From: Candidatus Undinarchaeota archaeon
GTDB taxonomy: Archaea; SpSt-1190; JASMDC01
DNA: 64,000 bases
Direction: 5' to 3'
NCBI GenBank assembly: GCA_964519305.1
Contig: CAZFHY010000001.1
Coordinates: forward strand, 442,132 to 506,131
Below, piece by piece: positions 14,348 through 54,638 of this stretch. The number at the start of each line of letters is the position of its first letter. Within the stretch, counting starts at the first letter, position 1. A program made the position numbers and the translations under genes. The notes beneath the pieces are model-generated. The model was not told where the DNA came from and did no database searches. It saw nothing but the letters and a program-made list of their open reading frames with translations.

Positions 14348-17300
14348 ATGGGCCTACCTAAGGTGATCATCGTGAAATCCAGATATGTTATCTTGGCCGT
14401 TATGGCAGTGGTGTTAATGAGTGCCGTCCCCGTGAGCTCGGAAGAGGGCGGAGAGCTCGTGTGGTGCATCCACGAGTACGAACCCGACGACGAGTTCGCG
14501 AAGTGTAGCAACATCGAGGATGCGGCCACCCTTATGCCGGGAGAGTGCGGGATGCTCAGCATCATGAAGGGAGACTACTTGGAGGACAACGACGATTACA
14601 GCTGGAAGGCATGCTCCTACCTCTTCAATCTGGGGGAACAGGCCTATGTGGGTCAGGTGTGCGTCGCAAAAGGCTGGATGGCCAACAGCCCGACCCGCGA
14701 GGAGCTCAATCTACCGCCCTGCGAGGAAAATCCCCCAGTCGAGGGCTCACCCTTGATCCAAGAAGGGATGATCCCCGGTCTCAAGAAACCGAAGTTCGAG
14801 TCCGAGGCCGAAGTGGACGAGCTCAACGTCTCGCTCCTCGACTGCCCCGAGCAAGGGGGGGTTGACGCGGCCAACTACGAGAACATGGCCGAGTACGTCG
14901 ACGCGACAATCCTCTACTATGAGAACTTCCTCAAGTTCTTCAAGGAGCTCAACAACGATTTCCAAATCGTATATTCCGCTGTCAAGAAGCAATGCTCAAT
15001 ATGCGAGAGCAGCGTCGAGTCGTTCAACGAGAAATACGCCGTCTGTGGTATGCCCGAGCAGAAGATGGAGGACCTTCCCGCCCCCACTATCTGCTGGAAC
15101 GTGGCCAAGCCATTCTGTGAGCGGGGCTCCGTCTGCAACGAGGGGAGCGGAGGCCAAGCAGGGATGGTGAAGATGTGCAAGATGTGCGAGGCCATCCCGT
15201 GCAACTACGGAAAGGAGTGCGAGAAGGGTGTACCCGGACCCGACGGAGAGTGCTGGTCCAATGAGAACTTCTGCGGGACCGATGACACTATCGGCTCACC
15301 AGGCGACGACTTCGGAGCAGCTGGATGCAACCCGAAGCCCGATCCCTCCACAGTGGACATGGGCGGGTGCTGCATGGAGGCCATGGTCATCTGTCAGGCC
15401 AAGTACGGTGCCTACCTCGAGGCCTGGGGCGAGTGGAACGAGGAGCAGGAGGAGAACCCCACCCCTGATGAGGAACCTCAGGAACCTTTGTGCACGGACA
15501 TCTACCAGTACAAGGACGAAGCGTGCTTCCAGGATAGCCCCTCCCACATAATCGCGGAAGCGTGGCGGACCCTTGTGACCGAGAAGTCCAAGCGGGCCGT
15601 TGTCGCCCCCATTGGTGTGCGGGAGTGCGAGAAGAAGCTCGCCGACCTACGCGACATCTGCGAGATGGACAAGGACCAGATCGCCTGTGATGTCGAGAAG
15701 GACATGAAGAAGACCCTCAAGTACCTCAAGAACCTCCTCACCCAGATGCCCAAGGCCATCGGTGAGCTCAAGAAGGTGAAGTCCAAGTTCCAGACATCCA
15801 TCAATCAGGGTGCGTCCTACGTCGAGATCAAGAAGAACATGGACACGCTGGTCGCCATCATGGAGAACATCGACAAGCTCGAGAAGAGCGGCGACGAGGA
15901 GGAACTGGACACCGATAAGTTCCAGAAGCTGCTCACCAAGCTGGTCAAGTTCTTCCAGACGAGCGAGTTCTACACCGACCTCACCAAGAAGCACTCCTGG
16001 AACGCGGTGGCCTGCAAGCTCGATGCCGCAGGGTGCGATCTCGCATTCCCGGGAGGAACACCTAAGGAGATGAAGCACAAAGGCGATGGCTGCGACAAAT
16101 GGGGCGCGTTCTGTAGCAAGTGGAACGTGATCCCCGGTGGTGGCGGTCAGTCAGGTGACGAACAGAGCTTTGCTATGACGTCCATGATGATGAGCGGTAG
16201 CGGCGAGGGAGCTCCCATCCTAGGGTGCGGCGGGTACCGCGGTGGATGCCACCACGTCCCCCAGATGTTCCACTGGAAGGACCAGAACATGGACGAGTGG
16301 GGCGAGGTCCATATGGAAGCGCTCCAGGAGTTCCGTGAGCTCGACCTCCGGGACATGTTCGTCGATTCGGGAGAGTGCTTCCGTCACAAGATCCCTACTG
16401 TATCGCTGTGCGAGGACATCTGCAAGTCGTGCCATGGCACGTCCATTGCACACTGTCATGCCCAGCTGGGTCTGTGCGTTTGCCGGCTGGGTACCGAGTG
16501 GAAGACCACCGCGTACGAATGTCAGGAGCCCATCCACAACGACACGGACAAAGCGCAGTTCCAGGCATGCTGCGAGGCAATGTACGCCGATGTGAGCGCG
16601 CCCACGGCTGGTACGGGGATACCTCACGTCGTATACAGGCCCGGCGGCGGTACCGCTAATCGCCAGTGCGTGGTGGGGATGGACAAGAACTGCCTCTTCG
16701 ACAAGGAACTCTGCCCTACACCGGACCACGTCCTCAACGCAGGCCCCCTCTACGACTACTGTCAGACCAGCACATCAGAGACTGGCCTGTGCTGCAAGTT
16801 CGGGTTCGAGGAAAAACCTATCACCTACTCCTGCGCTGAGAGCGCGTCCTGTCGCAAAGGGTGTCAGGAGAAGTTCAGGGGGAACCCGCTACGTGTCGAC
16901 GAGTGCACTGCCCGGTGCATGGCGGCCGAGGTATCATGCGAGCAGCAGTGCCTGACACAATCCCTGGACATCCGTGAGGAGCGGAGGTGTATCTACGAGT
17001 GCTGGAAGCAGGAGCAGGAGGAGATGCCCGAGTACACGTTCGATTGCATCCGCAACTGTCGGCCTGACCAGAAGGACGAAAAAGTACAGGAGGTATGCCA
17101 GCGCATCTGCAAGGCGCTCGCACCGGAGCTCGATGTGCAACTATCAGCGCTACGCGGGGAGAGCGATGTCCAGGCATTCTATGCAGGTGAGGACATCCGG
17201 TTCAAGGCAGCTGTTGACAACAAGGGCTTCCTACCGTTCCGCGGACGGGCCGAGGTGAAGCTCAGGCTCTTCGATTCGTGCGACTGCCCGCCCTGCCCCG

Positions 17301-18526
17301 AGGGGGCAGTGTGCGAGTGTGCGTGCGATGACCAGTTCAGCGCCATCCTGGCAACGATCCCTGTTCCCTTGGTGGAACCAGGGGAGTCCTCGGTCCTACT
17401 CTCGGATCCCAAGGCAGTGGACGCGGGGCTCGCGGGCAAGACAGTCCAGCCCGTGATGGAGCTCTATGATGAGGACAACCGGTTGATACGCTCCGCACAA
17501 GGACCCATCTCGAAGGTCCTCGAGATGGGGAAAGTGGCCATACAGGACGCTTGGTTCGTCGTGGACGGCGAGCGTGACACGAAGGCCTATGCCGGCTCGA
17601 GGATCAAGGGAGCTATCAACGTAAAAGCCATCCTCTTCCCCATTACTGTATACGTATCCATGGTGGACGCGGACGGGAACGAGATCGAGGGCTCACGTAG
17701 CTCTATCGAGATCGAGGACGTGCTCGACGGTAGCCAGCTCGAGACGCTGGAGATCGAGACTCCCGCCCGGTACGTCGGGTTCGTGCTGCGTCTCCGTGTC
17801 GAGGCCATGGACGAGGACAATACGACCCTCCTCGCCGAGACCCTCACCGAACAGGGGCTCGCTTCCGACGCCTGTGCAGGCGACGTGATGACCGCATGGT
17901 GTCAGAAGGAGACCGTGGACTTCCGCATGGACTACCCCGACGCTTACCTCGAGATCCGCCGGCCTGAGCTGAAGCTCAATGAGGCGGTGTTCGAGACCAA
18001 GGACGGACTGTCATCGGCGGTCATGTACGAGGCGACCGAGGTGCGTGCCTCCATCAAGCTGTCGGACATCGCCACCATACCCTTCGAAGGGATGGTGACC
18101 ATCTCCGCTCTGGACTCTTGGTCCGTGGAGGTCGAGGGAAGCTCTCGACAGGTTGACATAACCCTCGCTGGCAAGCAGGATACTACGGCATGGTCGGAGT
18201 ACTTCACCGCAGAGCCCGGGAACACCTACGTGATCATGGTCCGGGCCACGGACCACCAGGGCCGGGAGTGGGCCATCGTTCCCACGTCTTCAGGCCTGGT
18301 GAATCCTGAGCTCTTCCCCCTTGCCCGGCTGGAGGCGAAGGAGAAGACTCTGGTACAGGGCGAGGCGACGTACATCTACTCGTCCATCAGCTACTCGGAC
18401 TGCAACATCCAGGTCGCGTGCGAGGAATGCCTGCCTACGTGCACCCTCTGGCTCCACCGTAAGTCGTGCACGATCAAATCTGATCCTGGCACCTGTGCCT
18501 GCGAGTGTATCAGCTCGGCCACATAG
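14348..18526 (+). CDS. Giant secreted Cys-rich protein A (1392 aa), unknown function
   Basis: Signal peptide, alternating Cys-rich and long helical segments, C-terminal beta-rich domains; collinear paralog of the next gene. Confidence 0.88.
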   Translation: MGLPKVIIVKSRYVILAVMAVVLMSAVPVSSEEGGELVWCIHEYEPDDEFAKCSNIEDAATLMPGECGMLSIMKGDYLEDNDDYSWKACSYLFNLGEQAYVGQVCVAKGWMANSPTREELNLPPCEENPPVEGSPLIQEGMIPGLKKPKFESEAEVDELNVSLLDCPEQGGVDAANYENMAEYVDATILYYENFLKFFKELNNDFQIVYSAVKKQCSICESSVESFNEKYAVCGMPEQKMEDLPAPTICWNVAKPFCERGSVCNEGSGGQAGMVKMCKMCEAIPCNYGKECEKGVPGPDGECWSNENFCGTDDTIGSPGDDFGAAGCNPKPDPSTVDMGGCCMEAMVICQAKYGAYLEAWGEWNEEQEENPTPDEEPQEPLCTDIYQYKDEACFQDSPSHIIAEAWRTLVTEKSKRAVVAPIGVRECEKKLADLRDICEMDKDQIACDVEKDMKKTLKYLKNLLTQMPKAIGELKKVKSKFQTSINQGASYVEIKKNMDTLVAIMENIDKLEKSGDEEELDTDKFQKLLTKLVKFFQTSEFYTDLTKKHSWNAVACKLDAAGCDLAFPGGTPKEMKHKGDGCDKWGAFCSKWNVIPGGGGQSGDEQSFAMTSMMMSGSGEGAPILGCGGYRGGCHHVPQMFHWKDQNMDEWGEVHMEALQEFRELDLRDMFVDSGECFRHKIPTVSLCEDICKSCHGTSIAHCHAQLGLCVCRLGTEWKTTAYECQEPIHNDTDKAQFQACCEAMYADVSAPTAGTGIPHVVYRPGGGTANRQCVVGMDKNCLFDKELCPTPDHVLNAGPLYDYCQTSTSETGLCCKFGFEEKPITYSCAESASCRKGCQEKFRGNPLRVDECTARCMAAEVSCEQQCLTQSLDIREERRCIYECWKQEQEEMPEYTFDCIRNCRPDQKDEKVQEVCQRICKALAPELDVQLSALRGESDVQAFYAGEDIRFKAAVDNKGFLPFRGRAEVKLRLFDSCDCPPCPEGAVCECACDDQFSAILATIPVPLVEPGESSVLLSDPKAVDAGLAGKTVQPVMELYDEDNRLIRSAQGPISKVLEMGKVAIQDAWFVVDGERDTKAYAGSRIKGAINVKAILFPITVYVSMVDADGNEIEGSRSSIEIEDVLDGSQLETLEIETPARYVGFVLRLRVEAMDEDNTTLLAETLTEQGLASDACAGDVMTAWCQKETVDFRMDYPDAYLEIRRPELKLNEAVFETKDGLSSAVMYEATEVRASIKLSDIATIPFEGMVTISALDSWSVEVEGSSRQVDITLAGKQDTTAWSEYFTAEPGNTYVIMVRATDHQGREWAIVPTSSGLVNPELFPLARLEAKEKTLVQGEATYIYSSISYSDCNIQVACEECLPTCTLWLHRKSCTIKSDPGTCACECISSAT

Positions 18527-18632
18527 GCCGTAGCATCGGAAGGTAATGCATGACAGGGCGGACATACCGGTGGCGCTGACCAGGAAACTTGGGAAGGGAG
18601 GGGGGCCTGGCCACCCCCCGGCACGTGCTACA

Positions 18633-21600
18633 ATGCTCACCACCACGCTCGTCCTCCTGGCTCTCCTGTCAATGAATCTCGCCCTGGCACCCTCTGCTTG
18701 CTCCCCGAAGCTGGAGCCGGGCATGGAGACCTGGTGCATCATGGAGACCGAGGGTGCGTCCGACGATTGTGAGTTGGAGGAAAGCTCTCCAGGAATGTTC
18801 TTCCAGTGCCGGGGCTCGGTGGGCCTCTACGACGGAGACAACGCTTGCTGGGAATCGGGCGAGGATTGTCTACCGGGCGAGGACTGTGAATGCGAGGACG
18901 AGTTCTCCGATGACGAGGCCGCTTGTGACTCCATCGCCATCTCAGGCCACAGCGTGGGCCACTGCGGTCCCCTGAGCATCGGTGGGGGCGACGGCGGCGG
19001 TGCGGACGAACAGTGCCGCCAGTCCTTCAAGATGAAGATCTGCACCTGGCAGTGCGCTTTCGGGGGCGACGGGTACGTGGGCGCGGTGTGCGTTGACAAG
19101 GGATATGGCGAGGCCAACGGCGGACCACGCCCCGACCTCAACCTCCGTCCCTGCGAGGAGAACCCCCTCACGGAGGGTGAACCGTACATCTGCAACACCA
19201 TGATCCCGGGACTCGGGAAGCCGGAGTATACCGGATACGAGCCCGATGAGCTCAACGTGAGCCTGCTCGACTGTCCCGAGGACGTGAGCAAGATCGCTGC
19301 TAACTACGAGAGCATGGCCGACTTCGTCGAGACCTCTATCGTCTATTACGAGAACTTCAAGAAGTTCTACACATCGCTGGAGAAGGACCTGCGCAACATC
19401 TACAACGCTGCGAAGAAGCAGTGCACTCTGTGCGAGAGCTCCATCGAGGAGTTCAACGACAAGTACGGTGGATGCGCGCTCGAGGTGGAGATCGGTGACC
19501 TCCCCTCGCCCAGCTCATGCTTCCAAACGTCCAAGTTCGCCTGCATGGACAAGGAGAAGTGCGTCGAGGGCAACAACGGGATGTCCATGTGTCAGTCGCT
19601 GTGCGATCCCTACCCGTGTAACTACGGGGACAACTGTGACACTCACGGTGTGCCCCGAAAGCCCGTGGGCGAGAAGCACGAGTGCTGGCACAACGACTAC
19701 TTCTGCGGTGACAACAAGGCCATCGGGCACAAGGACGACCATGGCGGCTTCAAGGGGTGCGACACTGGACGCGATACCGTCAATCCAAAGGGACAGATAT
19801 GCTGCTGCGTGCGGCCGTGCATCAACGAGGAGTTCGATCCCTACGGTTACATGAACGCGGGCTGCTACAGGCCTAACCACATCATCGCCGAGGCCTGGCG
19901 CTCACTGGAGACCAAGAAGGCCAAGAACAGCCGGCCGTCACCGCGCAAGATACGTAACTGTGCACACGAACTTGCCGACCTCCACGACGTGTGCGAGCTG
20001 GATGAGGTGAACGGGACACGCCTCAAGGACTACAATCCCGGGGACTACGCCTGGCCTCCGCCCCCAACCGAAGGGCACCACTGCGTCCACTCGCCCATCG
20101 ACTTCGCGGCGTTCCGCCCGCCGGCGTCCCAGGCAGAGGAGGACGAGAAGAGCTACAGAACGCCCTGCGAGGTGGAGTACCAGCTGGAGCGCATCCTCGA
20201 CTACCTTGGGCATATGCTCAAGGAGCTGCCCAAGATGATCGGCCAACTAGAGGCCGTCAGGGCCAAGTACCAGCTAAACGTTGAGCAGGGTGCGACCTAC
20301 ACCCATGTCCAGGATCACTTGGAAGAGCTGGCCGCCATCGCCCTGAGGATCGACAAGTTCGAGGCGGAGGATGGAAAGCCCGACCGTATCCGCAGTTCTG
20401 ACGAGTTCCAGGAGGAGACCACCGACATGCTCCTCTTCCTCCAGAACGACAAGCTCTTGGCCGACCTCACCACGTTCCGTCATAATTTCCCTTCCGAGGT
20501 CAGTAAGTTCTGCTCCGACGTGGAGATCCAGGACATCCACTTCCCGCCGGGCACGAACCCGCACCTGAAGTACAAGTCGGAAGAGGAGCCACCGAACGCC
20601 GATCCGCACCGCCAGTGGGCGATATTCTGTCGTAACTACAACGTCAAGGAGTGCGGGAAACGGCCCGAGGACAAAGAGCCCGGCGGCATGCCCCCGCTCC
20701 CCCAGCCAAAGCCGCCCGTCCCCGGGTGCGGAGGTTACCGTGGAGGGTGCGCTCCTCACGAACCGGCCATCGCCAACATCAAGGACATCAACATGGACGA
20801 GTGGGCCGAGGAGCATCTGGATACACTCGAGATCATCCGGGAGACCGATGTAGAGGACGTGTTCGTGGACACCCTTAGCTGCCTCGTCCATAAGATACCA
20901 AAGGTCTCGCTGTGCGAGGACGTGTGCAAGAAGTGCTATGGCACGACCATGGCGCACTGTCATGCCCAGCTCGAACTGTGCGTGTGCCGGCTGGGCACCG
21001 AGTGGAGGACGACCGCGTACGAGTGCGCTGATCCCACTCTCAATGACACCGACCGGGCGAGCATCCATGCCTGCTGCGAGGGGATGTTCGCAGACGTGTA
21101 CGAGCCCGGACCACGGTCACCTATCCCTTGGTCGGCCACGCGTGCCCTGTGCGGTGAGGGTGTGGAGGGCGACTGTCCGTTCAATCCCGAGCTGTGCGAG
21201 TCACCATCGCATGCCCTGAGCGGTGGACCGCTCTTCGACCGCTGTCAGACCGCGCGCTCCCCCATTGGGCTGTGCTGCCGGTACGGATTCGATGAACGAC
21301 CTGTAACGCTGAGGTGCATGGGCAGCTCCTCGTGCCGGACCGCATGCCATCGCCTGTTCGGTAGCAACCGCGAACGCACGGACGCGTGCACGCGTCGGTG
21401 CATGGGTGCCAAGGTGGCGTGCGAGCGGACCTGTGTCACTCAGTTCCCTGAGACCAAAGAGGCACGTGCCTGTGTCGATGACTGCTGGGAAGGAGAGGGG
21501 GAACGGGATTGGCCTGACACGACGTTCGAGTGCATCCTCAGTTGTCCGCGCGACGAGCGGGACACGGGGATTTGGGACATCTGTGCGCGCATGTGCAAGG

Positions 21601-23012
21601 CACTGACACCCGAGCTGACGGTGAGTTTAGCTACACTCCGTGGCCAGAGCGAGGTCCAGGCGCTCTATGGAGGTGAGAACGTGCGTTTCCGGGCGGATGT
21701 GGCCAACTCCGGATTCCTTCCATTCTACGGTCGGTCCGAGGTCAAGCTCCGGCTCTTCGATGCCTGCGACTGCCCATTCTGCCCGGAGGACGCCGTGTGC
21801 GAGTGCTCCTGCGAGGACCTGTTCTCCGCCATCATGGCCACAATCCCAGTCTCCTCCGTGGATCCTAACACCGATGTCACGCTACTCTCGAACCTGAAAG
21901 AGATGGACGAGGATCTGGTCGGTAAGACGGTGCAGCCGGTGCTCGAGGTGTACGACGAGCAGGGGAGGGCCATTGCCACGGCCATGGGTTCCATCTCGAA
22001 GGTGCTACCCATGGGCACTGTGGCCGTCCAGGACGCTTGGTTCACAGTGGACGGTGAACGAGCTACCAAGGCACATGCCGGTACCCGTGTCAAGGGGACC
22101 GTTACTGTGAAGTCCGCCCTCTTCCCACTTACAGTGTCCGTCTCCATGGTGGACTCAGAAGGACAAGAGGTCCCTGGATCACTGGCGTCGATCATGGTGA
22201 TGGACGTGCTCGAGGGCAGCCTGCTAGAGACGCGGGAGGTGGATACACCCGCAGAGTACGTCGGATTCGTGCTCCGACTCCGGGTGGAGGCCATGGACGA
22301 GAACAACGTGACGGTGTTCGATCAGGTCCTCCCTGAACAGGGCCTGCCCTCCGAATCCTGTTCCGGTGAGGTCATGACCTTCTGGTGTCTTGAGGACGCG
22401 CTCGAGTTCCGTATGGACTACCCCCAAGCGTATCTCGAGGTCACGCGGCCTGTGCTCAAGGTCTCCGAGGCAGGGTTCGAGACCGACGGGGGGCTCACTT
22501 CGGCGGTGTTCTATGAGACCACCCGTGTCCATGCCACCGTGGACCTGTCCGATATCGCGACAGTGCCCTTCGAGGGGATGGTGTCCGTCGCAGTAATCGA
22601 TGCCTGGTCACTGGCGGTCGAAGGGAGCAATGCCGACACACAGGTCGCTATCTGGGGTGAGGGATCAACGACCGTCATGTCCGGCCCCTTCATGGCCGAA
22701 CCGGGCAACTCCTATATGATCGTGGTGAGAGCCAGGGACGTTCACGGCCGTGAATGGGCCGTCGAACCGACGTCCCACGGTATCGTGAACGCGGACCTCT
22801 TCCCTCTCGCGCGACTCGAGGTACGGGAGCCGACTGTCGTACAGGGCGAGAGCGTGTTCATCGACCACGGCATCGACTACTCCGGCTGTATGCTCCGTGT
22901 GTCGTGCAACGACTGCCTGCCGACATGCACATTGTGGCTCGATCGGAAGAAGTGCCTCATCCGCACCGATCCCGGCTCCTGCGCCTGCGAGTGCACCGTT
23001 ACGGTCGGATAG
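18633..23012 (+). CDS. Giant secreted Cys-rich protein B, paralog of A
   Basis: Signal peptide MLTTTLVLLALLSMNLALA; shared blocks ELNVSLLDCPE, HIIAEAWR, GCGGYRGGC, AHCHAQL.LCVCRLGTEW.TTAYEC, CLPTCTLWL. Confidence 0.88.
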   Translation: MLTTTLVLLALLSMNLALAPSACSPKLEPGMETWCIMETEGASDDCELEESSPGMFFQCRGSVGLYDGDNACWESGEDCLPGEDCECEDEFSDDEAACDSIAISGHSVGHCGPLSIGGGDGGGADEQCRQSFKMKICTWQCAFGGDGYVGAVCVDKGYGEANGGPRPDLNLRPCEENPLTEGEPYICNTMIPGLGKPEYTGYEPDELNVSLLDCPEDVSKIAANYESMADFVETSIVYYENFKKFYTSLEKDLRNIYNAAKKQCTLCESSIEEFNDKYGGCALEVEIGDLPSPSSCFQTSKFACMDKEKCVEGNNGMSMCQSLCDPYPCNYGDNCDTHGVPRKPVGEKHECWHNDYFCGDNKAIGHKDDHGGFKGCDTGRDTVNPKGQICCCVRPCINEEFDPYGYMNAGCYRPNHIIAEAWRSLETKKAKNSRPSPRKIRNCAHELADLHDVCELDEVNGTRLKDYNPGDYAWPPPPTEGHHCVHSPIDFAAFRPPASQAEEDEKSYRTPCEVEYQLERILDYLGHMLKELPKMIGQLEAVRAKYQLNVEQGATYTHVQDHLEELAAIALRIDKFEAEDGKPDRIRSSDEFQEETTDMLLFLQNDKLLADLTTFRHNFPSEVSKFCSDVEIQDIHFPPGTNPHLKYKSEEEPPNADPHRQWAIFCRNYNVKECGKRPEDKEPGGMPPLPQPKPPVPGCGGYRGGCAPHEPAIANIKDINMDEWAEEHLDTLEIIRETDVEDVFVDTLSCLVHKIPKVSLCEDVCKKCYGTTMAHCHAQLELCVCRLGTEWRTTAYECADPTLNDTDRASIHACCEGMFADVYEPGPRSPIPWSATRALCGEGVEGDCPFNPELCESPSHALSGGPLFDRCQTARSPIGLCCRYGFDERPVTLRCMGSSSCRTACHRLFGSNRERTDACTRRCMGAKVACERTCVTQFPETKEARACVDDCWEGEGERDWPDTTFECILSCPRDERDTGIWDICARMCKALTPELTVSLATLRGQSEVQALYGGENVRFRADVANSGFLPFYGRSEVKLRLFDACDCPFCPEDAVCECSCEDLFSAIMATIPVSSVDPNTDVTLLSNLKEMDEDLVGKTVQPVLEVYDEQGRAIATAMGSISKVLPMGTVAVQDAWFTVDGERATKAHAGTRVKGTVTVKSALFPLTVSVSMVDSEGQEVPGSLASIMVMDVLEGSLLETREVDTPAEYVGFVLRLRVEAMDENNVTVFDQVLPEQGLPSESCSGEVMTFWCLEDALEFRMDYPQAYLEVTRPVLKVSEAGFETDGGLTSAVFYETTRVHATVDLSDIATVPFEGMVSVAVIDAWSLAVEGSNADTQVAIWGEGSTTVMSGPFMAEPGNSYMIVVRARDVHGREWAVEPTSHGIVNADLFPLARLEVREPTVVQGESVFIDHGIDYSGCMLRVSCNDCLPTCTLWLDRKKCLIRTDPGSCACECTVTVG

Positions 23013-33331: not shown

Positions 33332-34522
33332 CTAGAGGACCGTCAGGCCCACCAGTGCCGCGGCCAGGAAGGCCAGCGTCACCGGACCTGCCACGGCTCT
33401 GGCGAATCCTCGCATATCCGTCCTGAAGTACTCAAGGGACACCACCAGGCACGGGTGGACGGGCGATACCATATAACCGAGGAAGACTGCCAGGTACATC
33501 ACGGCGAAGGGTATCGGCCGCATTGTCGTCGCGCCCACCATGGCCAGATGTATGGGGATTAGGATCGAGGCGGGGAGCTGGATGCGTCCTGTTGCCACAC
33601 CCAGTAAGAAACCCACTGGTACCAGGAGCGCCCATTGGGACGGTGCCACACCAGCTATGAACGACGGTGCCGGCGATGCAGTGAACATCTCCAGGAACAG
33701 GAACATCCCAAGGACTATGGCGCCGAAGCTCCAGGGACGCATCTTTCGGGCGACGTTCCTGAGGTCACGACCCTTGGGACCCGTGAGCGCATAGGCCAGG
33801 ACCAGGGCCACGATGACGCCCGCCAGCGCCCCGAGTGTCGGGAACGGGAGCAGCCCTGCCCTCTGCAAGAGCAGATCGACGGCCGGTGCCGAGAACAGGA
33901 CGACCATTGGCACGATACCTGTCCAGGGATCGCCCTCCCCCGGGCCATCGTTCGGCACCTGGCGAAGCAGGAGGACATAGCCGAGCAGGCCACAGAACAC
34001 GAACCCCGGCACTTGCCACGGGATGACCTCGTACACACCGAGACCGGCCATCTCGGCCGAAGCGATGAGCGACGGGCTAAGAGGATAGATCAGGAACATT
34101 AGGTGCCGATACCATACGTTGATGGCCACCTTCAGCTCACCGGGGACGTCCGCCCCGCGTCGTTCCACCAGCGGTGCCGAGAGCAATGCACCCCCGGGCA
34201 TGGGGAGCATCCCTACCATGGCCGGCGCGACCGCAAGGAATGGACGGCGGCCCATCCGAAGGCTCGCCACGAGCCGGTCCATGAGCCCGCCCTCCTCCAT
34301 CACACCACCGATGAGGGGGATGACCGCTACCGCAAGAGCGAGGGCTAGCACGGACGGATCTCCAAGGGTGGCCCCCGCGATCCATACGACCGTGGCGGCC
34401 GGAAGGGTCAGGAGCCCCAAGGTAAGCGCCCCTGCGGTGAGGGCTCCGGGGAGGCTCCACCGTGCCACGGCGAAGAGCACGCCGAATGACAGCGCCAAGC
34501 TCATGAGCACAGGGAGGGGCAT
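33332..34522 (-). CDS. DUF401 family membrane protein
   Basis: PAMVGMLPMPGGALLSAP, NVWYRH, SPVHPCL; highly hydrophobic. Confidence 0.85.
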   Translation of the reverse strand: MPLPVLMSLALSFGVLFAVARWSLPGALTAGALTLGLLTLPAATVVWIAGATLGDPSVLALALAVAVIPLIGGVMEEGGLMDRLVASLRMGRRPFLAVAPAMVGMLPMPGGALLSAPLVERRGADVPGELKVAINVWYRHLMFLIYPLSPSLIASAEMAGLGVYEVIPWQVPGFVFCGLLGYVLLLRQVPNDGPGEGDPWTGIVPMVVLFSAPAVDLLLQRAGLLPFPTLGALAGVIVALVLAYALTGPKGRDLRNVARKMRPWSFGAIVLGMFLFLEMFTASPAPSFIAGVAPSQWALLVPVGFLLGVATGRIQLPASILIPIHLAMVGATTMRPIPFAVMYLAVFLGYMVSPVHPCLVVSLEYFRTDMRGFARAVAGPVTLAFLAAALVGLTVL

Positions 34523-34579
34523 AGACGGCAGGAATGTGTGAGGGCGTTATAAGGATTGGGTTGGGGTGCGTGAACTACC

Positions 34580-35137
34580 TTACGCCACTGAGCGCATGGT
34601 GGCCACATGCGTCTGAGCACGGCCGCCCACCTCGTGGTACCAGTCGCTGTTCTCCATTTCGTTCGCCGCCTGCTCCCAGTTGCCTGTCGTGAGGGCTAGG
34701 TTGAGCTTCACGAACAAGGAGAACCGGTTGGGGCCGAGGTTGAACATCATGTCCACCACAACGTGCTTGACGTCGCGAGGCATGTTGTCCCAGGTCGCAG
34801 GGAAGGCCTGCTGACTTTGCGCAATAGCACGCTCAAGATCGCCCTCGAACAGCTTGTTGCACTTTTCCTTGGACACCGTCTGCCCCACCTTCAGGCCGTC
34901 GAGGGGGGTTACAAGATGGCCCCAGCACACGGTCGGGTTACCGTACTTGTCCGGGTACACGGTCTCTTCGTACCCCTCGTAGCCCTTGGTCATGGCGTCG
35001 AGCTGTTGCATATCGATCCCTTTTGTGTCCTTCGTTTCCTCAGTGTCATCCCGGGGGATCATGGCCTGCGAGTCACCGAAGCAGCCACTGACCATGACAA
35101 GGGCGAGAAGGAGTGCTAGATGAAGGACGCGTACCAT
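34580..35137 (-). CDS. Lipoprotein T4-type (GH24) lysozyme/muramidase
   Basis: E-x8-D-x5-T catalytic spacing (EGYEETVYPDKYGNPT, then VCWGH), VDMMFNLG, NWEQAANEM.NSDWY..VGGRA; lipobox LVMVSGC. Confidence 0.9.
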   Translation of the reverse strand: MVRVLHLALLLALVMVSGCFGDSQAMIPRDDTEETKDTKGIDMQQLDAMTKGYEGYEETVYPDKYGNPTVCWGHLVTPLDGLKVGQTVSKEKCNKLFEGDLERAIAQSQQAFPATWDNMPRDVKHVVVDMMFNLGPNRFSLFVKLNLALTTGNWEQAANEMENSDWYHEVGGRAQTHVATMRSVA

Positions 35138-35160
35138 CGAATGCTCACTAAGTTTCAAGG

Positions 35161-35175
35161 GATAAAAACCTTTCG
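35161..35175 (-). promoter_or_regulatory. BRE-TATA promoter of the lysozyme gene (probably leaderless)
   Basis: Minus strand CGAAAGG-TTTTTAT about 25 nt upstream of ATG 35137. Confidence 0.6.
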
Positions 35176-35183
35176 AGCTCGTC

Positions 35184-37544
35184 CTACACCGCGTCAACTG
35201 ACACGACGTACGTGTCGTCATCGCGCGCAACTGCAGCACCCACACCGTTCACGGTCGCTCCCGTCACTTCGCTCTCTGAGTGGATGATGAACCTGTAGGT
35301 CTTCACCTCGGTGGCGTAGCCCTCTTGTATCCGGTCCACGGTTATCTCTGCAGTACCGGCGTCGTTGCGGTAGGCGAACTCGGTGAGGTTGTACTCGCCC
35401 TGCTTGAATCCGAAGGAGTGCCCGTCGTCCTCGTAGAACCGACCCTCGGCGCGGTCGTCAGCGTACACGTGGAGCTCCAGCTCCTCTGTAGGTTTCTCAT
35501 CAGTGTACTGCATGGCCGGCCCCATGGGCACGATCGAACCCTGCTTCACATACAGGGGCATGGTGTCCACGGGCGCGTCCTTGACAACGGTCTGGCGGCC
35601 ATCGTGGACCTCGTCGGTCCAGTAGTCGACCCATCTGCCCTCGGGGAGGTAGACATCGCGCTCCCGCGCCCCCTCCTTGGTCACCGGGGCCACCAGGAGG
35701 GCGTCCCCGTACATGAATTCGTTCGAGAGGTTGCGTACGTTCGGGTCGTTCTGGTGGTCGAGCACAAGCGGCCGCATCACGGGGATACCGGTCTCGGACG
35801 CCTGGCGGAAGGCGTCGTAGGTGTAGGGCATGAGCTGGTAGCGGAGGGTTAGATAGTCACGAGCTATGTCCTCGGTCTCCTGGCCGAAGGTCCATGGCTC
35901 CTGCTCACGGGTGTGACGGGAGGAGTGGGTACGGCAGAAGGGTGAGAAAGCACCGAACTGGACCCAGCGGGCATATAGCTCGGGAGTACAGTCAGCGCCG
36001 AACCCACCGATGTCGGTACCGGTGAACGCAATCCCGGACAGACCCATGTTCTCCATCATTGGCATGCCCATGTCCAGGTGCTCCCACTTGCTCCGGTTGT
36101 CGCCGGTCCACACGGCCGCGTATCGCTGGATACCGGAGAAGCCCGAGCGTGTGAGCACGAAAGGACGCTCGTCAGGATTGGCGCGCAGCAGGCCCTCGTA
36201 CGTGGCCATGTCCTCGTACATACCGTACACGTTATGTGCTTCGTTATGCTTGACGTCGCCCAGGTCGCCGTGATGCTCCATGTCGTCGGGCATGGTCTTG
36301 TAGGTGTCGATGATAGCGGGCTCGTTCATATCGTTCCAGATACCGGCGATACCGGCATCGGTGAGACGGCCGTACAGGTCTCCCCACCACTGTCTGACCT
36401 CCTCCCGGGTGAAGTCCGGGAAGGCGGCGGATTTGGGCCATACCGGAGCGTGGAACACGTCGCCGTTCTCGTCGGTGATAAAGTAGCCCTCCTTCATCCC
36501 TTCAGAGTACACGTCATAGTTATCCCCGTCGTCCACCCCAGGATCGATGATGGTGACTGTGCGAATCCCTTGGTCCTTCAGCTCCTTGATCATGGTCTCC
36601 GGATCAGGGAACCGCTGCGGGTCCCACGTGAACACGCGGTACTGGTCCATGTAGTCGATATCGAGCCAGATCGCGTCAAGTGGGATGTCCCGCTGACGGA
36701 ATCCGTCGGCGATCTCGCGAACCGTGGCCTCGGGGAAGTAGCTCCACTTGCACTGGTGGTTGCCCAATGACCATCTCGGAGGTAGCGGCATCCTGCCAGT
36801 GACCTCGGTGAAGCGCTCCACCACATGGCGCATTGCAGGTCCCTTGAGGAAATAGTAGTTGAGCTGGCCGCCGTCGGCCGTGACGCTCGCCTTATCAGCC
36901 CCGTTCTCTGCCATGGAGAACGTGGTGCGGAAGGTGTTGTCAAGGAACAGTCCGTAGGCAGTCTCGTCGTGCAGCCCTATGTAGAACGGGTGCGCCTGGT
37001 ACATCTCGTCGGTACCGCCAGCGTGGTCGCCATTAGCATCCCAGGTCCATTGCGTTAGGTGCTCGCCTCGCTTGTCCAGCGGCCCCGTCTTCTCGCCAAG
37101 CCCGTAGAACGACTCGTCCCCGGCGACCTCGCGCTCCATGCTTATCCGCCCCTCGTCATCCCAGGTCATCCCCTGACCGGCGTCGCGTGTGATGACGGTG
37201 TCGTCGGTATCGGCGAAGGTCACCCTGCCTGATGTCTTATCCACATAGACATGGAGCTCATCGGAGGTGAGGAGGTATGCATCAGACCGGTCCTCGACGG
37301 TCACGTCGGACCCCCCAAGGTCGCGTGTAAGGATAGCTGGGGAGTCTTTCCGTGCGGCGCCGTCCGTGTCCAGTCGGACGTTCACCACGTCATCGGCAAG
37401 GAACTCGATCCGGACATCGGCCTCCGATCCGTGGAACACGTAGGAGTCGCCGTCGATGTCGTATCCTCCGACGGTGCCCACTCCGTGGACGGTCGGACCG
37501 CTAGCATCCTCGCTCTGACTAGTCATCGTGGCATCCCCTGCCAT
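35184..37544 (-). CDS. Glycoside hydrolase family 31 alpha-glucosidase
   Basis: YGLGEK, WLDIDYM, WNDMNEP (nucleophile), WTGDN (acid/base), DIGGF; no signal peptide; alternative start 37526. Confidence 0.96.
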   Translation of the reverse strand: MAGDATMTSQSEDASGPTVHGVGTVGGYDIDGDSYVFHGSEADVRIEFLADDVVNVRLDTDGAARKDSPAILTRDLGGSDVTVEDRSDAYLLTSDELHVYVDKTSGRVTFADTDDTVITRDAGQGMTWDDEGRISMEREVAGDESFYGLGEKTGPLDKRGEHLTQWTWDANGDHAGGTDEMYQAHPFYIGLHDETAYGLFLDNTFRTTFSMAENGADKASVTADGGQLNYYFLKGPAMRHVVERFTEVTGRMPLPPRWSLGNHQCKWSYFPEATVREIADGFRQRDIPLDAIWLDIDYMDQYRVFTWDPQRFPDPETMIKELKDQGIRTVTIIDPGVDDGDNYDVYSEGMKEGYFITDENGDVFHAPVWPKSAAFPDFTREEVRQWWGDLYGRLTDAGIAGIWNDMNEPAIIDTYKTMPDDMEHHGDLGDVKHNEAHNVYGMYEDMATYEGLLRANPDERPFVLTRSGFSGIQRYAAVWTGDNRSKWEHLDMGMPMMENMGLSGIAFTGTDIGGFGADCTPELYARWVQFGAFSPFCRTHSSRHTREQEPWTFGQETEDIARDYLTLRYQLMPYTYDAFRQASETGIPVMRPLVLDHQNDPNVRNLSNEFMYGDALLVAPVTKEGARERDVYLPEGRWVDYWTDEVHDGRQTVVKDAPVDTMPLYVKQGSIVPMGPAMQYTDEKPTEELELHVYADDRAEGRFYEDDGHSFGFKQGEYNLTEFAYRNDAGTAEITVDRIQEGYATEVKTYRFIIHSESEVTGATVNGVGAAVARDDDTYVVSVDAV

Positions 37545-38518: not shown

Positions 38519-40459
38519 TCAGGACTCGGCCTCGAATCCTTCTGGTGCGAGCCGCTGCAACCTTGCACGTGCCTCGATGACGAACCGCTCCACCTCGTCC
38601 TGTGCGAGATGGTCGTTGGCGAACTCGAAAGCGCCCGGGACCACCCACGGCAGGTGCCAGTAGAGCTCACGGAACAGCCCCCCGTTCCAGATGGAGAAGG
38701 CAGGATCCTTCACCGGGAGCAGCTTGTGGTCCCCCCGCTGTACCGCGTCCCAGAGTGGGCTTCCCGGGAAGGCGATGAGGGAGAACAGGTTGGGCTTCAC
38801 GTACGGAGCATGGGTGGTGACCATCTCTTCGAGGAACGACACCGTGGCCTGCATGTCAGCGCGGTCCTCGTGCGGTAAGGCCACGATGCCACCGATGCTC
38901 ATCCCGATACCCTTCGACGCAGCATGGGCGATGAGCCGACGGGCCCGCTCAACGTACTTGACAGGATCACCGGTCTTTCCCATGAACTTCAGACTGGCCG
39001 GGACCACGCTCTCCAGACCCAGATAGATGCTCTCAAGACCGACTTCGCTCATCCTGTCGATGAGATCGGTGGTCAGGGTGTCCACGCGGGACGAGCACGT
39101 CCACACCAGTTCCGGCCTTTTCTCGCCAAGGAGCTCGCAGAACCGTCCGACCCAGCGGGAATCTGCGGTGAAAAGATTATCAGAGAACTCTATCCGTGTC
39201 ACACCCCACCGTTCGTGTAGGTCAATAAGCTCCCGGACAACGTACTCAGGCGAGTTCTGTCGCATGGCCGGGTACATCTTCTCGTTGGAGCAGTAGGTAC
39301 ATGAGAACGGACAGCCACGGCTGGTGCTCACAGTCACAGCACGACCTGGCCGTGCTCCCACGAACCGCTCGTAGGAGGGGAACGGTAACGAGTCAAGGTC
39401 CTTGATGGGTGCTGCCGGTGGCGTGTGGATGACCTCGGACCCGCTGCGGTAGGACAACCCTTGCACGTCGTCGAAGGGCTGCCCCTTTACTAGTCGATCT
39501 ACGAGAGCAGGGAAGGTCGCCTCGCCCTCGCCACGCACGAGCACATCGGCCTCCGGTAGGATAGAGAGGAGCTCGGTGGGATTCTCAGTGGCAGGATAAC
39601 CGCCCATCACAACGGGAACGTCGGGATGGCGCGGTCTGAAGGCCCGGACCAGTTCAAGGGCGAACGGGAGATTGGAGGTCCAGGCACCAACACCGAGGAT
39701 GTCGGGCCGGGTCCGCTCGATCACCGAAAGGATGTGGGACAAGTGCCGCCGGGCTTCTGCGAGTGGTACGGTGATGACGTTGTCGAGGTCCAGCACGATG
39801 TTGGCATCAACGCAGGATACCTCTATGGACTGATCTGCACGCTCGAGCGCTGCGGCCAGGTAAGCGAGATTGAGCGAGGGTCGCGGCGGAGTGCCGTCCA
39901 CGGTGGGGGGCCATACGAGGGTGATCCGCTTGCCTGTGGCCTGTCGGACCGGCCCGATCGAGCGGGGGATTGAGCGGCAGCCCCAGTGACAGGTCCCACG
40001 CGCCCAATGACGACAGGCGCGACACTCGTCAGGCACAGGTGCAATATCGCGATAGAGACGGGCATAATCGGCCACCGCTGCTTCGCTCGGGAAAGAGGCG
40101 CGCGGAGGGCCACACCACCGATCGGTGACGCGGCACAGTACCACACACCCTTCATCCAACGTCCAGGCGTCCTCGCACTCATCACAGGACGTGGGCACGT
40201 CCATCCCCCACGCAGGATCCCCCGCGCCGAGAAGGCAAGGAGGTAAAGGGGTGCGCACCCTGACCGATATCCCTCCCTCGCGTAGCATCGTGAGAGCGTC
40301 CCGTAACCGCCGCCCCATGGATGGAGTGCGGTCCTCCGGAGGGAGCTCGAGGGAGAGTTGTACGGGGTCACTTGCACCCGTCAGGTCCGCTATAGCATCC
40401 ACTAGCTCAGCGATGGTTCCCCGGAACACACGACCGTTCTCAGATGGTGCGTCGCTCAT
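38519..40459 (-). CDS. B12-binding radical SAM protein with N-terminal SPASM-like Cys-rich domain
   Basis: LAYLAA, VMGG, VRGEGE, SRGCPFSCTYC, DNLFT, GLES, PGSPL; N-terminal PLPPC, SCDEC, ECRACRHWARGTCHWGC. Confidence 0.9.
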   Translation of the reverse strand: MSDAPSENGRVFRGTIAELVDAIADLTGASDPVQLSLELPPEDRTPSMGRRLRDALTMLREGGISVRVRTPLPPCLLGAGDPAWGMDVPTSCDECEDAWTLDEGCVVLCRVTDRWCGPPRASFPSEAAVADYARLYRDIAPVPDECRACRHWARGTCHWGCRSIPRSIGPVRQATGKRITLVWPPTVDGTPPRPSLNLAYLAAALERADQSIEVSCVDANIVLDLDNVITVPLAEARRHLSHILSVIERTRPDILGVGAWTSNLPFALELVRAFRPRHPDVPVVMGGYPATENPTELLSILPEADVLVRGEGEATFPALVDRLVKGQPFDDVQGLSYRSGSEVIHTPPAAPIKDLDSLPFPSYERFVGARPGRAVTVSTSRGCPFSCTYCSNEKMYPAMRQNSPEYVVRELIDLHERWGVTRIEFSDNLFTADSRWVGRFCELLGEKRPELVWTCSSRVDTLTTDLIDRMSEVGLESIYLGLESVVPASLKFMGKTGDPVKYVERARRLIAHAASKGIGMSIGGIVALPHEDRADMQATVSFLEEMVTTHAPYVKPNLFSLIAFPGSPLWDAVQRGDHKLLPVKDPAFSIWNGGLFRELYWHLPWVVPGAFEFANDHLAQDEVERFVIEARARLQRLAPEGFEAES

Positions 40460-40469
40460 CGGTCCCCCC

Positions 40470-42002
40470 TCATTCAAAGGTGACCAGCAGCGGCCGCCCA
40501 GCACCCGGTACGGTTATCCGTGTTATCTCCCGCTCACCTGCGCGGAGCACAACTGCATCATCGGTCCGCTCTACCGTATCGACCTTCGCAAGGTCCGGGT
40601 GGATGGCGTCACCGAAGGGTATAAGGTTCTCGACCTCCACGCGGCCACCCCGACGACGTCCCCATAGGGAAAGGCGACAGGCCGGTGATGCGTACACAAC
40701 ATGGCACCGCAGTGCGTGTTCCACAGCGGTCGCCAGAAGGGGCTCTCTCCGACGGAGGGCGGTCATCAGGTCCCGCGCCATACGGAGGCTCGGAGCACAC
40801 GTATACGTATGCGGCTGGTGGGACACAAGTCCCGTAATGTATGTGGATAGTGTATTGAGCTCAAAGGGATATGCGTCCGCGGGCTTCTCGTCGTAGGCGG
40901 CCATGGCAAGGTCCGGATGACGCCCTGCAGCGACGTGCCGGGCATAGAACCGGCGACAGCACTCCGGGTAGCCGAGCGCCTCGCCCAGGGCATTATCGTC
41001 ACCTACAGCATCTGCGTCCCGTACTGCCCGGGCTGCGGCCTTCTCCGGTGCCAGATAGTAGAAGACCAGTCCTGTCCGGGGATCGGACGAGCGTTCGCGT
41101 AGACCCGCCTCGTTGGGGCCGAACCTATGACGGAAGGTCGCCTGCTCCAAAGCCAATCCTCGGTGACGACAGAAGTCGGCCAATTCCTTGGAGCGGTCCA
41201 GGTCGAGGGATACACGGGCCGCAGGCTTGAGCCCTTCCTCCATTGCTATGACCTCCAGTGCGAGCCCGATAGGCCAGTCGTTTAGCCCACTGTCGGTCAG
41301 CGGGTAGGGTGCTTTTCCGCAGGTCACAGTGAAGGGGAAGCCCTCGAGCCGCACGGGGATATCGTGATGAGCGATTATATCGACGGCCATGTCCACGGGC
41401 GGGTATGACTTGTGCGGATGGACCTTATGGGACGTCCCGCGGACAAGTCCATTGTCACCCCACATTGGATTGCGGACGACGACCCGCGCCACACCACGCA
41501 GTGATTTGGCGATGAACCGAGCTGTCTCCGTAAGGTGTGAAAGTGCACGTCGTGTCGCCACGGCCTCGACCTCGATCCAGAGACCGAGGGCGACGAGCGT
41601 GCGTATCCCAGCAACACAGGCATCGAAGCTCCCGGGTATAGTGGTCTCGGCATCATGGACCATCGGCCGGGGACCGAATAGGCGCACGGTGAACCGGTCT
41701 ATCCCTGCTTCCGATAAGGAGGTCGCGTACGTACGGTCCGCGCATCGTGCCGCATCGGTCACTAGGTGGACGATCGCATCAGGGCGTTCCTTTCGGACGG
41801 CACGTACAAGGTCCGTGAGGTCATCCCTGTTCGTCGGTTCCTCGCCGACCAGCACCAGCTCCTCGTCCAAAGGAACGCCATCGATAGCGGCCAGTATATC
41901 ACTGATCGAAGGATCCTCCGGATAAGCAGGGAGTGCCGGGCGCAAGGCCCGGCACGCCGCGCACTCGCTGCTACCAGCCCCTCCTATCCAGAGGAACGCC
42001 AC
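40470..42002 (-). CDS. Degenerate radical SAM barrel fused to a DUF483-like domain
   Basis: GSSECAAC (first Cys missing), VGEEPT, HDA.T..PGSF; C-terminal LGEALGYPECCRRFY and SHQPH..C. Confidence 0.7.
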   Translation of the reverse strand: MAFLWIGGAGSSECAACRALRPALPAYPEDPSISDILAAIDGVPLDEELVLVGEEPTNRDDLTDLVRAVRKERPDAIVHLVTDAARCADRTYATSLSEAGIDRFTVRLFGPRPMVHDAETTIPGSFDACVAGIRTLVALGLWIEVEAVATRRALSHLTETARFIAKSLRGVARVVVRNPMWGDNGLVRGTSHKVHPHKSYPPVDMAVDIIAHHDIPVRLEGFPFTVTCGKAPYPLTDSGLNDWPIGLALEVIAMEEGLKPAARVSLDLDRSKELADFCRHRGLALEQATFRHRFGPNEAGLRERSSDPRTGLVFYYLAPEKAAARAVRDADAVGDDNALGEALGYPECCRRFYARHVAAGRHPDLAMAAYDEKPADAYPFELNTLSTYITGLVSHQPHTYTCAPSLRMARDLMTALRRREPLLATAVEHALRCHVVYASPACRLSLWGRRRGGRVEVENLIPFGDAIHPDLAKVDTVERTDDAVVLRAGEREITRITVPGAGRPLLVTFE

Positions 42003-54574: not shown

Positions 54575-54638
54575 CCACGCCTTCGCCTGATAAAGAGCTA
54601 TAAATCGTACGCTCTCAACGGTTTTGGAGGCCATTTTC

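Follow-up and report, generated by a model that had tools for sequence, protein, structure and literature searches.

A 64,000-nucleotide stretch of the genome of a Candidatus Undinarchaeota archaeon (genome G000, contig C1, positions 442132-506131; hereafter the window) carries a gene for a lysozyme of glycoside hydrolase family 24 (GH24), the family of the phage T4 enzyme. We interpret its product, P0001, as a horizontally acquired, domesticated, surface-tethered muramidase that acts on bacterial peptidoglycan in an uncultured marine archaeon, and we place the probability of this reading at about 0.65. A first-pass annotation, made from the letters of the window, had pointed to the gene as a lipid-anchored T4-type lysozyme lying in an archaeal chromosome without phage context. 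The gene and its parts, all on the minus strand and numbered by window position, are as follows.

34580..35137, minus strand: GH24/T4-type lysozyme gene (P0001), 185 codons plus stop, assigned with Pfam, phmmer, AlphaFold2 and Foldseek
34583..35005, minus strand: catalytic domain resembling T4 lysozyme (T4L), residues 45-185, including E54, D63, T69, W166 and R173
35006..35080, minus strand: acidic, probably disordered tether, residues 20-44 (predicted local distance difference test score, pLDDT, 51-68 in blocks over residues 11-40)
35081..35092, minus strand: lipobox V16-S17-G18-C19, with C19 the predicted lipid-modified first mature residue
35084..35137, minus strand: signal peptide, residues 1-18, with a one-Arg n-region, a Leu/Ala-rich h-region and no twin arginine
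35161..35175, minus strand: TATA box TTTTTATC (35161-35168), centred 27.5 nt before the ATG, and a purine-rich stretch (35169-35175) resembling a B recognition element (BRE)

Family, active site and predicted fold all place P0001 with T4 lysozyme. Its open reading frame (ORF) runs from an ATG at 35137 to a stop at 34580-34582, and profile searching assigned the 185-residue product to GH24, as had been supposed, with PF00959 (Phage_lysozyme) matching residues 51-173 at E 2.5e-15 with 57.3 bits (gathering score 22.3; 57.8 bits when the whole genome was scanned). PF00959 was the sole Pfam family on the protein at E ≤ 0.01, and the PHROG family phrog_7, 'endolysin', matched at E 1.6e-20. The catalytic spacing E-x8-D-x5-T noticed in the first-pass annotation is intact, being formed by E54 (34976-34978), D63 (34949-34951) and T69 (34931-34933). 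A phmmer alignment with T4 lysozyme, which extends to residue 183 of 185, sets E54 on E11 with the catalytic stretch free of gaps, so that D63 falls on D20 and T69 on T26 (T4L numbers read off the alignment), and among the 564 distinct PDB sequences that phmmer recovered nearly all of the best 60 were T4 lysozyme variants. When P0001 was aligned with 29 homologues, Y61, G73, D100, G135, F142, S164, W166 and R173 were invariant, E54 and T69 were conserved in at least 90%, and R173 and W166 corresponded to T4L R145 and W138. The AlphaFold2 model built on the same 29-homologue alignment has a mean pLDDT of 88.9, reaching at least 95 per 10-residue block from residue 41 onwards, and is predicted to adopt the two-lobed alpha/beta fold of T4 lysozyme. 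Foldseek against the PDB returned T4 lysozyme on top (217l, probability 1.00, TM-score 0.74 on the target over 155 columns), and the best 50 matches were all T4L entries or T4L fusions, with TM-scores of 0.71-0.76 on stand-alone T4L targets at a sequence identity of only 22-25%. The confident model and these structural matches also bear out the T4L-like C-terminal helices described earlier.

Preceding the catalytic domain is an N-terminus, MVRVLHLALLLALVMVSGC, that has the make-up of a lipoprotein signal, with one basic residue (R3), an 11-residue hydrophobic core (LHLALLLALVM) and a strict lipobox at V16-S17-G18-C19, in agreement with the signal ending in SGC that had been proposed. The strict lipobox was scored as a motif, [LVI][ASTVI][GAS]C, by pattern rather than by a dedicated signal-peptide predictor, the motif being as given in a paper on archaeal lipoproteins (PMC12462473), which also describes lipoproteins as prevalent in DPANN archaea and non-halobacterial archaea as mainly users of the Sec pathway. 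Because a twin arginine is absent, we regard the signal on P0001 as Sec-type. The host appears to use such signals itself, since among 2808 approximate ORFs the lipobox pattern occurred in 62 within the first 150 codons and in 16 within an internal control (codons 150-300), the strict form occurred in 27 N-terminally versus 7 internally, and several of the host signals closely resemble that of P0001. Downstream of the lipobox, residues 20-48 are acidic (isoelectric point, pI, 4.05; eight Asp plus Glu versus three Lys plus Arg), and AlphaFold2 rendered residues 1-40 as a low-confidence helix at 7-15 followed by coil.

The gene also has its own archaeal TATA promoter, as had been claimed, and its geometry is that of the host. 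With its centre 27.5 nt before the ATG, the TATA box fits the ~26-27 nt looked for at a leaderless archaeal promoter. Upstream of 2027 long ORFs, A/T-only hexamers peak at -32..-25 from the start codon (493 and 674 per 4-nt bin against a background of ~100-150), and the A/T profile of the host shows no Shine-Dalgarno-like feature before start codons. This peak, within which the TATA box of the lysozyme gene lies, indicates that leaderless transcription is probably predominant in this genome, the organism making mostly leaderless mRNAs, and the same geometry recurs at the downstream neighbour of the lysozyme gene.

Inheritance within the genus provided a further line of evidence that the gene is a settled part of the chromosome. 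An exhaustive phmmer search of 1.84 billion representatives gave 5088 matches at E ≤ 1e-3, of which only one, P0002, lay beyond 1e-30; it has the same length as P0001 and 91% protein identity over 185 aa, with the next best match at 107 bits and the next five listed 34-43% identical to P0001. A word index likewise returned P0002 alone, a single-protein scan of genome contigs returned no relative, and the same kind of scan of metagenome contigs returned one, 32% identical. In a same-genus genome (G001) the two genes that flank the lysozyme gene in the window, GH31 and DUF401, are adjacent (88% and 86% DNA identity; 93% and 90% protein identity), and between them the lysozyme gene is gone apart from one remnant:

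34580..34609, minus strand: last nine codons plus stop of the lysozyme gene, the sole part surviving, in frame, in G001

Translated from the aligned DNA, this remnant reads HVPTMRSMT and stop where G000 reads HVATMRSVA and stop, residues that in the T4L alignment fall in the conserved C-terminal helix. From this in-frame 3' remnant it follows that ~0.57 kb containing the lysozyme was deleted in G001 and that the gene predates the split of the species, while the GH31/DUF401 block was kept. A contig of 828 bp from a third study aligns over 34464-35177, where 85 letters differ and 4 gaps occur (~88% identity), and runs from the DUF401 start through the entire lysozyme gene to a loose end that resembles the 3' end of the G001 GH31 gene; it represents a second lineage with the lysozyme gene in the same place, and that lineage may be the source of P0002. 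The 91% identity between P0001 and P0002, within the range of the neighbouring genes (93% and 90%), is consistent with functional constraint. Domestication, which the first-pass annotation had suggested, is thus backed by host-like codon usage (detailed below), promoter and lipoprotein signal, by retention at the same position in a second lineage, and by the deletion remnant in a third.

Where the gene came from can be narrowed in part. P0001 carries the only PF00959 match in G000, and a PF00959 family query found none in 16 other genomes of the phylum and none in 40 relatives, a query weak for diverged copies and adequate for close ones (it overlooked Woesearchaeota GH24 genes that hmmscan and an alignment query detected). 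A small-alignment search for named genome loci found 80, of which 77 were bacterial and three archaeal-labelled (L013, L015 and L020). We then placed P0001 in a quick maximum-likelihood tree of 112 rows and 150 columns, from which P0061-P0151, 27 of the 80 loci of the alignment search and near-duplicate cluster members were left out. There P0001 and P0002 stand alone on a long stem (0.69; Shimodaira-Hasegawa-like approximate likelihood ratio test support, SH-aLRT, 100) within a polytomy of short, mostly unnamed phage-type GH24 proteins, with no larger starred set. The comparison with phage and bacterial GH24 proposed in the first-pass annotation thus grouped the gene among phage-type enzymes, in a polytomy from which no donor can be named; a marine phage or bacterium is the likely source.

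The replicon itself is archaeal, as had been stated. The window holds GatD and GatE (with GatD_N and GAD domains) 16-20 kb from the lysozyme gene, together with HMG-CoA reductase, an adenosine-specific kinase, DUF835, a TIGR00529 (AF0261-type) membrane protein and an Rfam tRNA at 935-1041 on the plus strand (49 bits), whose span of 107 nt makes it probably intron-bearing and for which ARAGORN reported no tRNA in the window. The closest named relative of GatE is that of a Candidatus Undinarchaeales archaeon (94%), followed by archaea at 41-52% that mostly bear DPANN-type labels, and a full-length archaeal small-subunit (SSU) rRNA lies on contig C14 (1508 bits), whose tetranucleotide correlation with C1 is 0.98. 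The genome amounts to 3.63 Mb in 42 contigs at ~60% GC, with 99.8% completeness and 4.3% estimated contamination. As a side observation, this is unusually large for the phylum, which GTDB represents by 17 species genomes, the 15 outside this genus measuring 0.6-1.2 Mb; a DPANN-affiliated lineage with 4-Mb genomes is mentioned in a paper on marine DPANN genomes (PMC10936187).

Contiguity and composition agree with residence in this chromosome. The lysozyme gene lies 476 kb into the 605-kb contig C1, and contigs assembled per run from two studies (27.6 kb and 53.4 kb, which may include the source sample) span both of its junctions with 0 differences over 33900-35900, in support of the assembly. 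Two further sets, X9 and X10, cover parts of this interval in short contigs only, and the holes in them carry no meaning. The GC content of the gene (0.59) falls at the 34th percentile of host ORFs, its GC content at third codon positions (0.785) at the 72nd and an index resembling the codon adaptation index (0.733) at the 66th of 2036. The catalytic domain has a pI of 4.94, below that of 88% of 201 homologue domains (median 6.83) and in keeping with a host proteome median of 5.40; a halophilic host was considered and rejected, the proteome median of 5.4 being moderately acidic only.

Phage context was sought across 39 window ORFs, which reach ~34 kb leftward and 29 kb rightward from the lysozyme gene. 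The two immediate neighbours are as follows.

35184..37541, minus strand: GH31 alpha-glucosidase, upstream neighbour, cytoplasmic, with no signal peptide and its stop 46 nt before the lysozyme ATG
33332..34522, minus strand: DUF401/TIGR00529 polytopic membrane protein, downstream neighbour, with its own TATA box (TTATAA, 34547-34552) centred 27.5 nt before its ATG

The gaps that flank the lysozyme gene, 46 nt on the GH31 side and 57 nt on the DUF401 side, leave no room for a small gene beside it. Pfam scanning of the 39 ORFs found no holin, capsid, terminase, integrase, transposase or other phage family, which upholds the earlier remark that no holin, capsid or integrase lies nearby, and likewise found neither a spanin nor the structural-gene neighbours of a phage or provirus lysis cassette; two neighbouring ORFs without a Pfam match had no PHROG match either. 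Farther out in the window are a hybrid histidine kinase, a response regulator with PAS and DUF835 domains, an M28 peptidase, B12-radical-SAM proteins, phosphate transporters and BacA. Provirus origin of the locus was rejected on the absence of phage families among these ORFs.

To place the enzyme in its host, we evaluated the cell-wall machinery of G000. A profile scan of this 99.8% complete genome found no match to Mur_ligase_M or SEDS, so that neither murein nor pseudomurein synthesis is evident, and the premise that the host has no murein substrate of its own held. Because the host makes neither polymer, an intact T4-type site would have no plausible substrate other than bacterial peptidoglycan. 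A second gene of G000 appears to be wall-directed, and we count it in favour of a bacterial target. This is a 2114-aa ORF on contig C19 (1070-7414, plus strand; locus L113) with a lipobox-type signal (...QAGC), a Peptidase_M23 match at residues 401-505 (35.9 bits) and the only SLT match in the genome, at residues 1681-1784 (21.1 bits by hmmscan, 27.2 in the genome scan). In G001 its conservation is 90%, and many paralogous open frames there, 1000-2850 aa long, match it as well; these giant surface proteins make up a large family.

Taken together, these observations uphold each element of the first-pass interpretation that lent itself to computation and suggest a route by which the enzyme could act, and we infer export, lipidation, muramidase activity and biological purpose from them. 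Transcription from the gene's own archaeal TATA promoter would give a leaderless mRNA translated from M1, the product would be exported by the Sec pathway, and lipid modification at Cys19 with cleavage would leave a mature enzyme of 166 residues on the outer face of the cytoplasmic membrane, held by an acidic tether of ~25 residues. There the Glu-Asp-Thr site would hydrolyse the MurNAc-GlcNAc bond of bacterial peptidoglycan, the substrate being supplied by bacteria either as contacting cells or as wall fragments reaching the archaeal surface. Between these uses, we give antagonism or a local breaching of walls a slight preference over scavenging for nutrients.

Several observations weigh against this interpretation. 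P0001 has no cell-wall-binding domain by Pfam, its short membrane tether may be unable to reach bacteria through an S-layer, and the deletion in the sister species G001 means that the gene is dispensable. At the promoter, the purine-rich CGAAAGG that abuts the TATA box was assigned as a BRE by eye only. The gene models of NCBI and JGI have M15 as their first residue (171 aa, MVSGC...), by which the signal would be lost and the protein would be cytoplasmic. Logan/ENA cluster members of P0001 begin at M1, and that start is supported over M15 by the TATA spacing, by the genome-wide promoter peak and by P0002, whose first 27 residues are identical to those of P0001 before the linker varies. For the use of the enzyme in feeding, the best MurQ score in G000 was 29 bits against a cut-off of 302, and neither Amidase_2 nor Amidase_3 was found there, so that a full muropeptide-catabolic route is not evident and scavenging is weakened.

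Scavenging nonetheless deserves weighing as a variant of our reading, in which the tethered enzyme trims soluble peptidoglycan fragments for the uptake of sugars and peptides, with the same chemistry and no weapon. A short tether on a protein without a wall-binding domain suits soluble substrates, the gene has a sugar hydrolase (GH31) on one side and a polytopic membrane protein (DUF401) on the other, and a 3.6-Mb genome suggests a free-living heterotroph. Against this, besides the absent catabolic genes, GH31 is without a signal peptide and the genes have separate promoters, which may make the neighbourhood a coincidence; we consider this variant unlikely, though the most credible of the rivals. 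Lower still we place a decaying relic, a phage or mobile-element endolysin without present function whose ORF is still open. The closest relatives beyond P0002 are indeed short phage-type GH24 proteins, its genome has no second PF00959 match, and the sister species lost it cleanly. A relic would not be expected, however, to have fully ameliorated composition and to have gained a host-type lipoprotein signal and promoter, in a window without phage or mobile genes among 39 ORFs, nor to stay unbroken in two or more lineages that differ by ~12% in DNA, its catalytic residues kept at 91% protein identity, and we judge it improbable.

The target might also be a glycan other than murein, such as a host envelope polysaccharide or chitin-like material, in which case P0001 would remodel glycans or serve as an autolysin. 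Substrates vary across the lysozyme superfamily, and a tether at the cell's own membrane is also what an autolysin needs. This is nevertheless very improbable given that P0001 retains all three T4L catalytic residues together with the counterparts of R145 and W138, that the host has no Mur-type ligase for murein or pseudomurein, and that the sister species manages without the gene. Hardly credible is an assembly chimera or bacterial or phage contamination of the bin. The estimated contamination of 4.3% leaves some room for it and such errors do occur, as with the phage-like contig under a Nitrosopumilus label (L013) described below, but the gene is embedded deep in a long contig with archaea-specific genes, is spanned by the identical per-run contigs, shows synteny in a diverged relative and a remnant in G001, and has host-like codon usage.

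Our interpretation of P0001 as a domesticated, surface-tethered muramidase meets several published systems. With phage T4 lysozyme, the GH24 product of gene e, P0001 shares the predicted fold, the Glu-x8-Asp-x5-Thr site and R173/W166 as equivalents of R145/W138; it differs in its acidic catalytic domain (pI 4.9), signal peptide, lipobox and tether, and in residing in an archaeal chromosome with no holin or phage gene near it. A muramidase of another family is known from an archaeon, reportedly Aciduliprofundum boonei. That enzyme, a GH25 lysozyme of bacterial origin with antibacterial action (Metcalf et al. 2014, eLife; PMC4241558), is like P0001 a muramidase that an archaeal genome took over from bacteria or phages, and is likewise read as antibacterial; it differs in family and fold and in that its antibacterial activity is experimental, whereas that of P0001 is predicted.

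Modular peptidoglycan hydrolases have been surveyed in archaea and reported from 175 of 3,706 genomes, with bacterial killing demonstrated for two of the enzymes against one bacterium (Strock et al. 2025, PLoS Biol; PMC12352652). According to that paper, closely related genomes differ in whether they have such hydrolases, which were gained and lost in a patchy manner, a pattern that the lysozyme loss in G001 fits; the paper interprets the enzymes in terms of conflict with bacteria. Both cases concern peptidoglycan hydrolases of archaea without peptidoglycan, secreted in the survey, but the definition used there demands that a catalytic domain be joined by one or more cell-wall-binding Pfam domains, and P0001, being single-domain with a predicted lipid anchor, therefore falls outside it; the terms 'GH24', 'lysozyme' and 'PF00959' do not occur in the main text of that paper. 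Large 'murein-like lytic transglycosylase' proteins of DPANN archaea, described in PMC10936187, are likewise surface proteins with peptidoglycan-cleaving domains, and G000 has one on C19; they differ from P0001 in carrying SLT/GH23-type domains in giant proteins rather than forming a small stand-alone GH24 lipoprotein. A literature search on 'GH24' with 'archaeal' gave no cellular archaeal GH24 by title among the matches listed. The novelty implied by the first-pass annotation was accordingly overrated, given the two studies in print (PMC4241558 and PMC12352652) and membrane-anchored GH24 proteins in Woesearchaeota-labelled genomes. The principle that archaea direct peptidoglycan hydrolases against bacteria is already published in those sources, and the new elements of the present case are its T4-type family, lipobox anchor and lineage.

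Other archaeal GH24 genes place P0001 in perspective. At L015 (694-1476) and L020 (5599-6309), both Woesearchaeota-labelled, a GH24 gene stands beside a class I (W/Y-type) tRNA synthetase gene, one of the two loci having an archaea-specific threonyl-tRNA synthetase (ThrRS) editing domain, and both are genuine archaeal loci. Their GH24 proteins have N-terminal transmembrane helices and keep Glu-x8-Asp, and together with L108, L110 and L111 they make up a set of transmembrane-anchored GH24 proteins of 236-465 aa from Woesearchaeota-labelled and related small archaeal genomes. These DPANN proteins share with P0001 the GH24 domain, a membrane anchor and, at L015 and L020, an archaeal housekeeping context, and differ from it in having transmembrane helices instead of a lipobox and an insertion between Asp and Thr. 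Because L015 and L020 group in another part of the tree, away from P0001 and P0002 (support 82), the acquisition of P0001 was probably separate from that of the Woesearchaeota genes. In five other archaeal phyla, an alignment query found GH24 in 5 of 401, 1 of 133 (this lone match on a 2.9-kb contig), 0 of 5, 0 of 2 and 0 of 40 genomes, a sample of mostly small phyla with Halobacteriota, Thermoplasmatota and Thermoproteota outside it; GH24 is thus rare but not unique in archaea. The remaining archaeal-labelled locus, L013, from a metagenome-assembled genome (MAG) labelled Candidatus Nitrosopumilus, was rejected as an archaeal GH24 since its contig is phage-like. The end of that contig carries a primase/helicase, a DNA methyltransferase, a GH24 endolysin, a second endolysin-like gene and a terminase fragment, and it is probably a mis-binned contig or a virus.

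Evidence for archaea fighting or feeding on bacteria is still thin, and the case of P0001 indicates that a minimal T4-type lysozyme can gain an archaeal promoter and lipoprotein signal and be retained for long. Since such a long-kept single-domain enzyme lies outside the survey definition, archaeal enzymes of this sort are probably undercounted. Going further, one could speculate, with considerable doubt on our part, that the lysozyme and the lipobox M23/SLT protein of L113 form a contact-dependent wall-breaching kit, that this large-genome DPANN relative attaches to or preys on bacteria rather than archaea, and that single-domain lipid-anchored hydrolases are an anti-bacterial class missed by domain-architecture surveys. 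As a small, easily expressed protein, P0001 offers a test case for DPANN-bacteria interaction and for the display of archaeal lipoproteins, and if active and salt- or acid-tolerant it would be a modest addition to candidate antibacterial enzymes.

Two further observations concern other genes of the window. On the minus strand, the interval 38519-42002 contains a pair of radical-SAM genes side by side, of which the first encodes a B12-binding domain, and after them a 493-aa ORF without a Pfam or PHROG match. On the plus strand are three giant ORFs without a Pfam match at E ≤ 0.001, at 14348-18526 (1392 aa), 18546-23012 (1488 aa) and 54624-59777 (1717 aa), the last of which begins with a lipobox-pattern signal. 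Because open frames of 1391 and 1569 aa on the G001 contig that carries the GH31/DUF401 locus (C27) match the giant L113 protein, the ORFs at 14348-18526 and 18546-23012 may belong to the same family.

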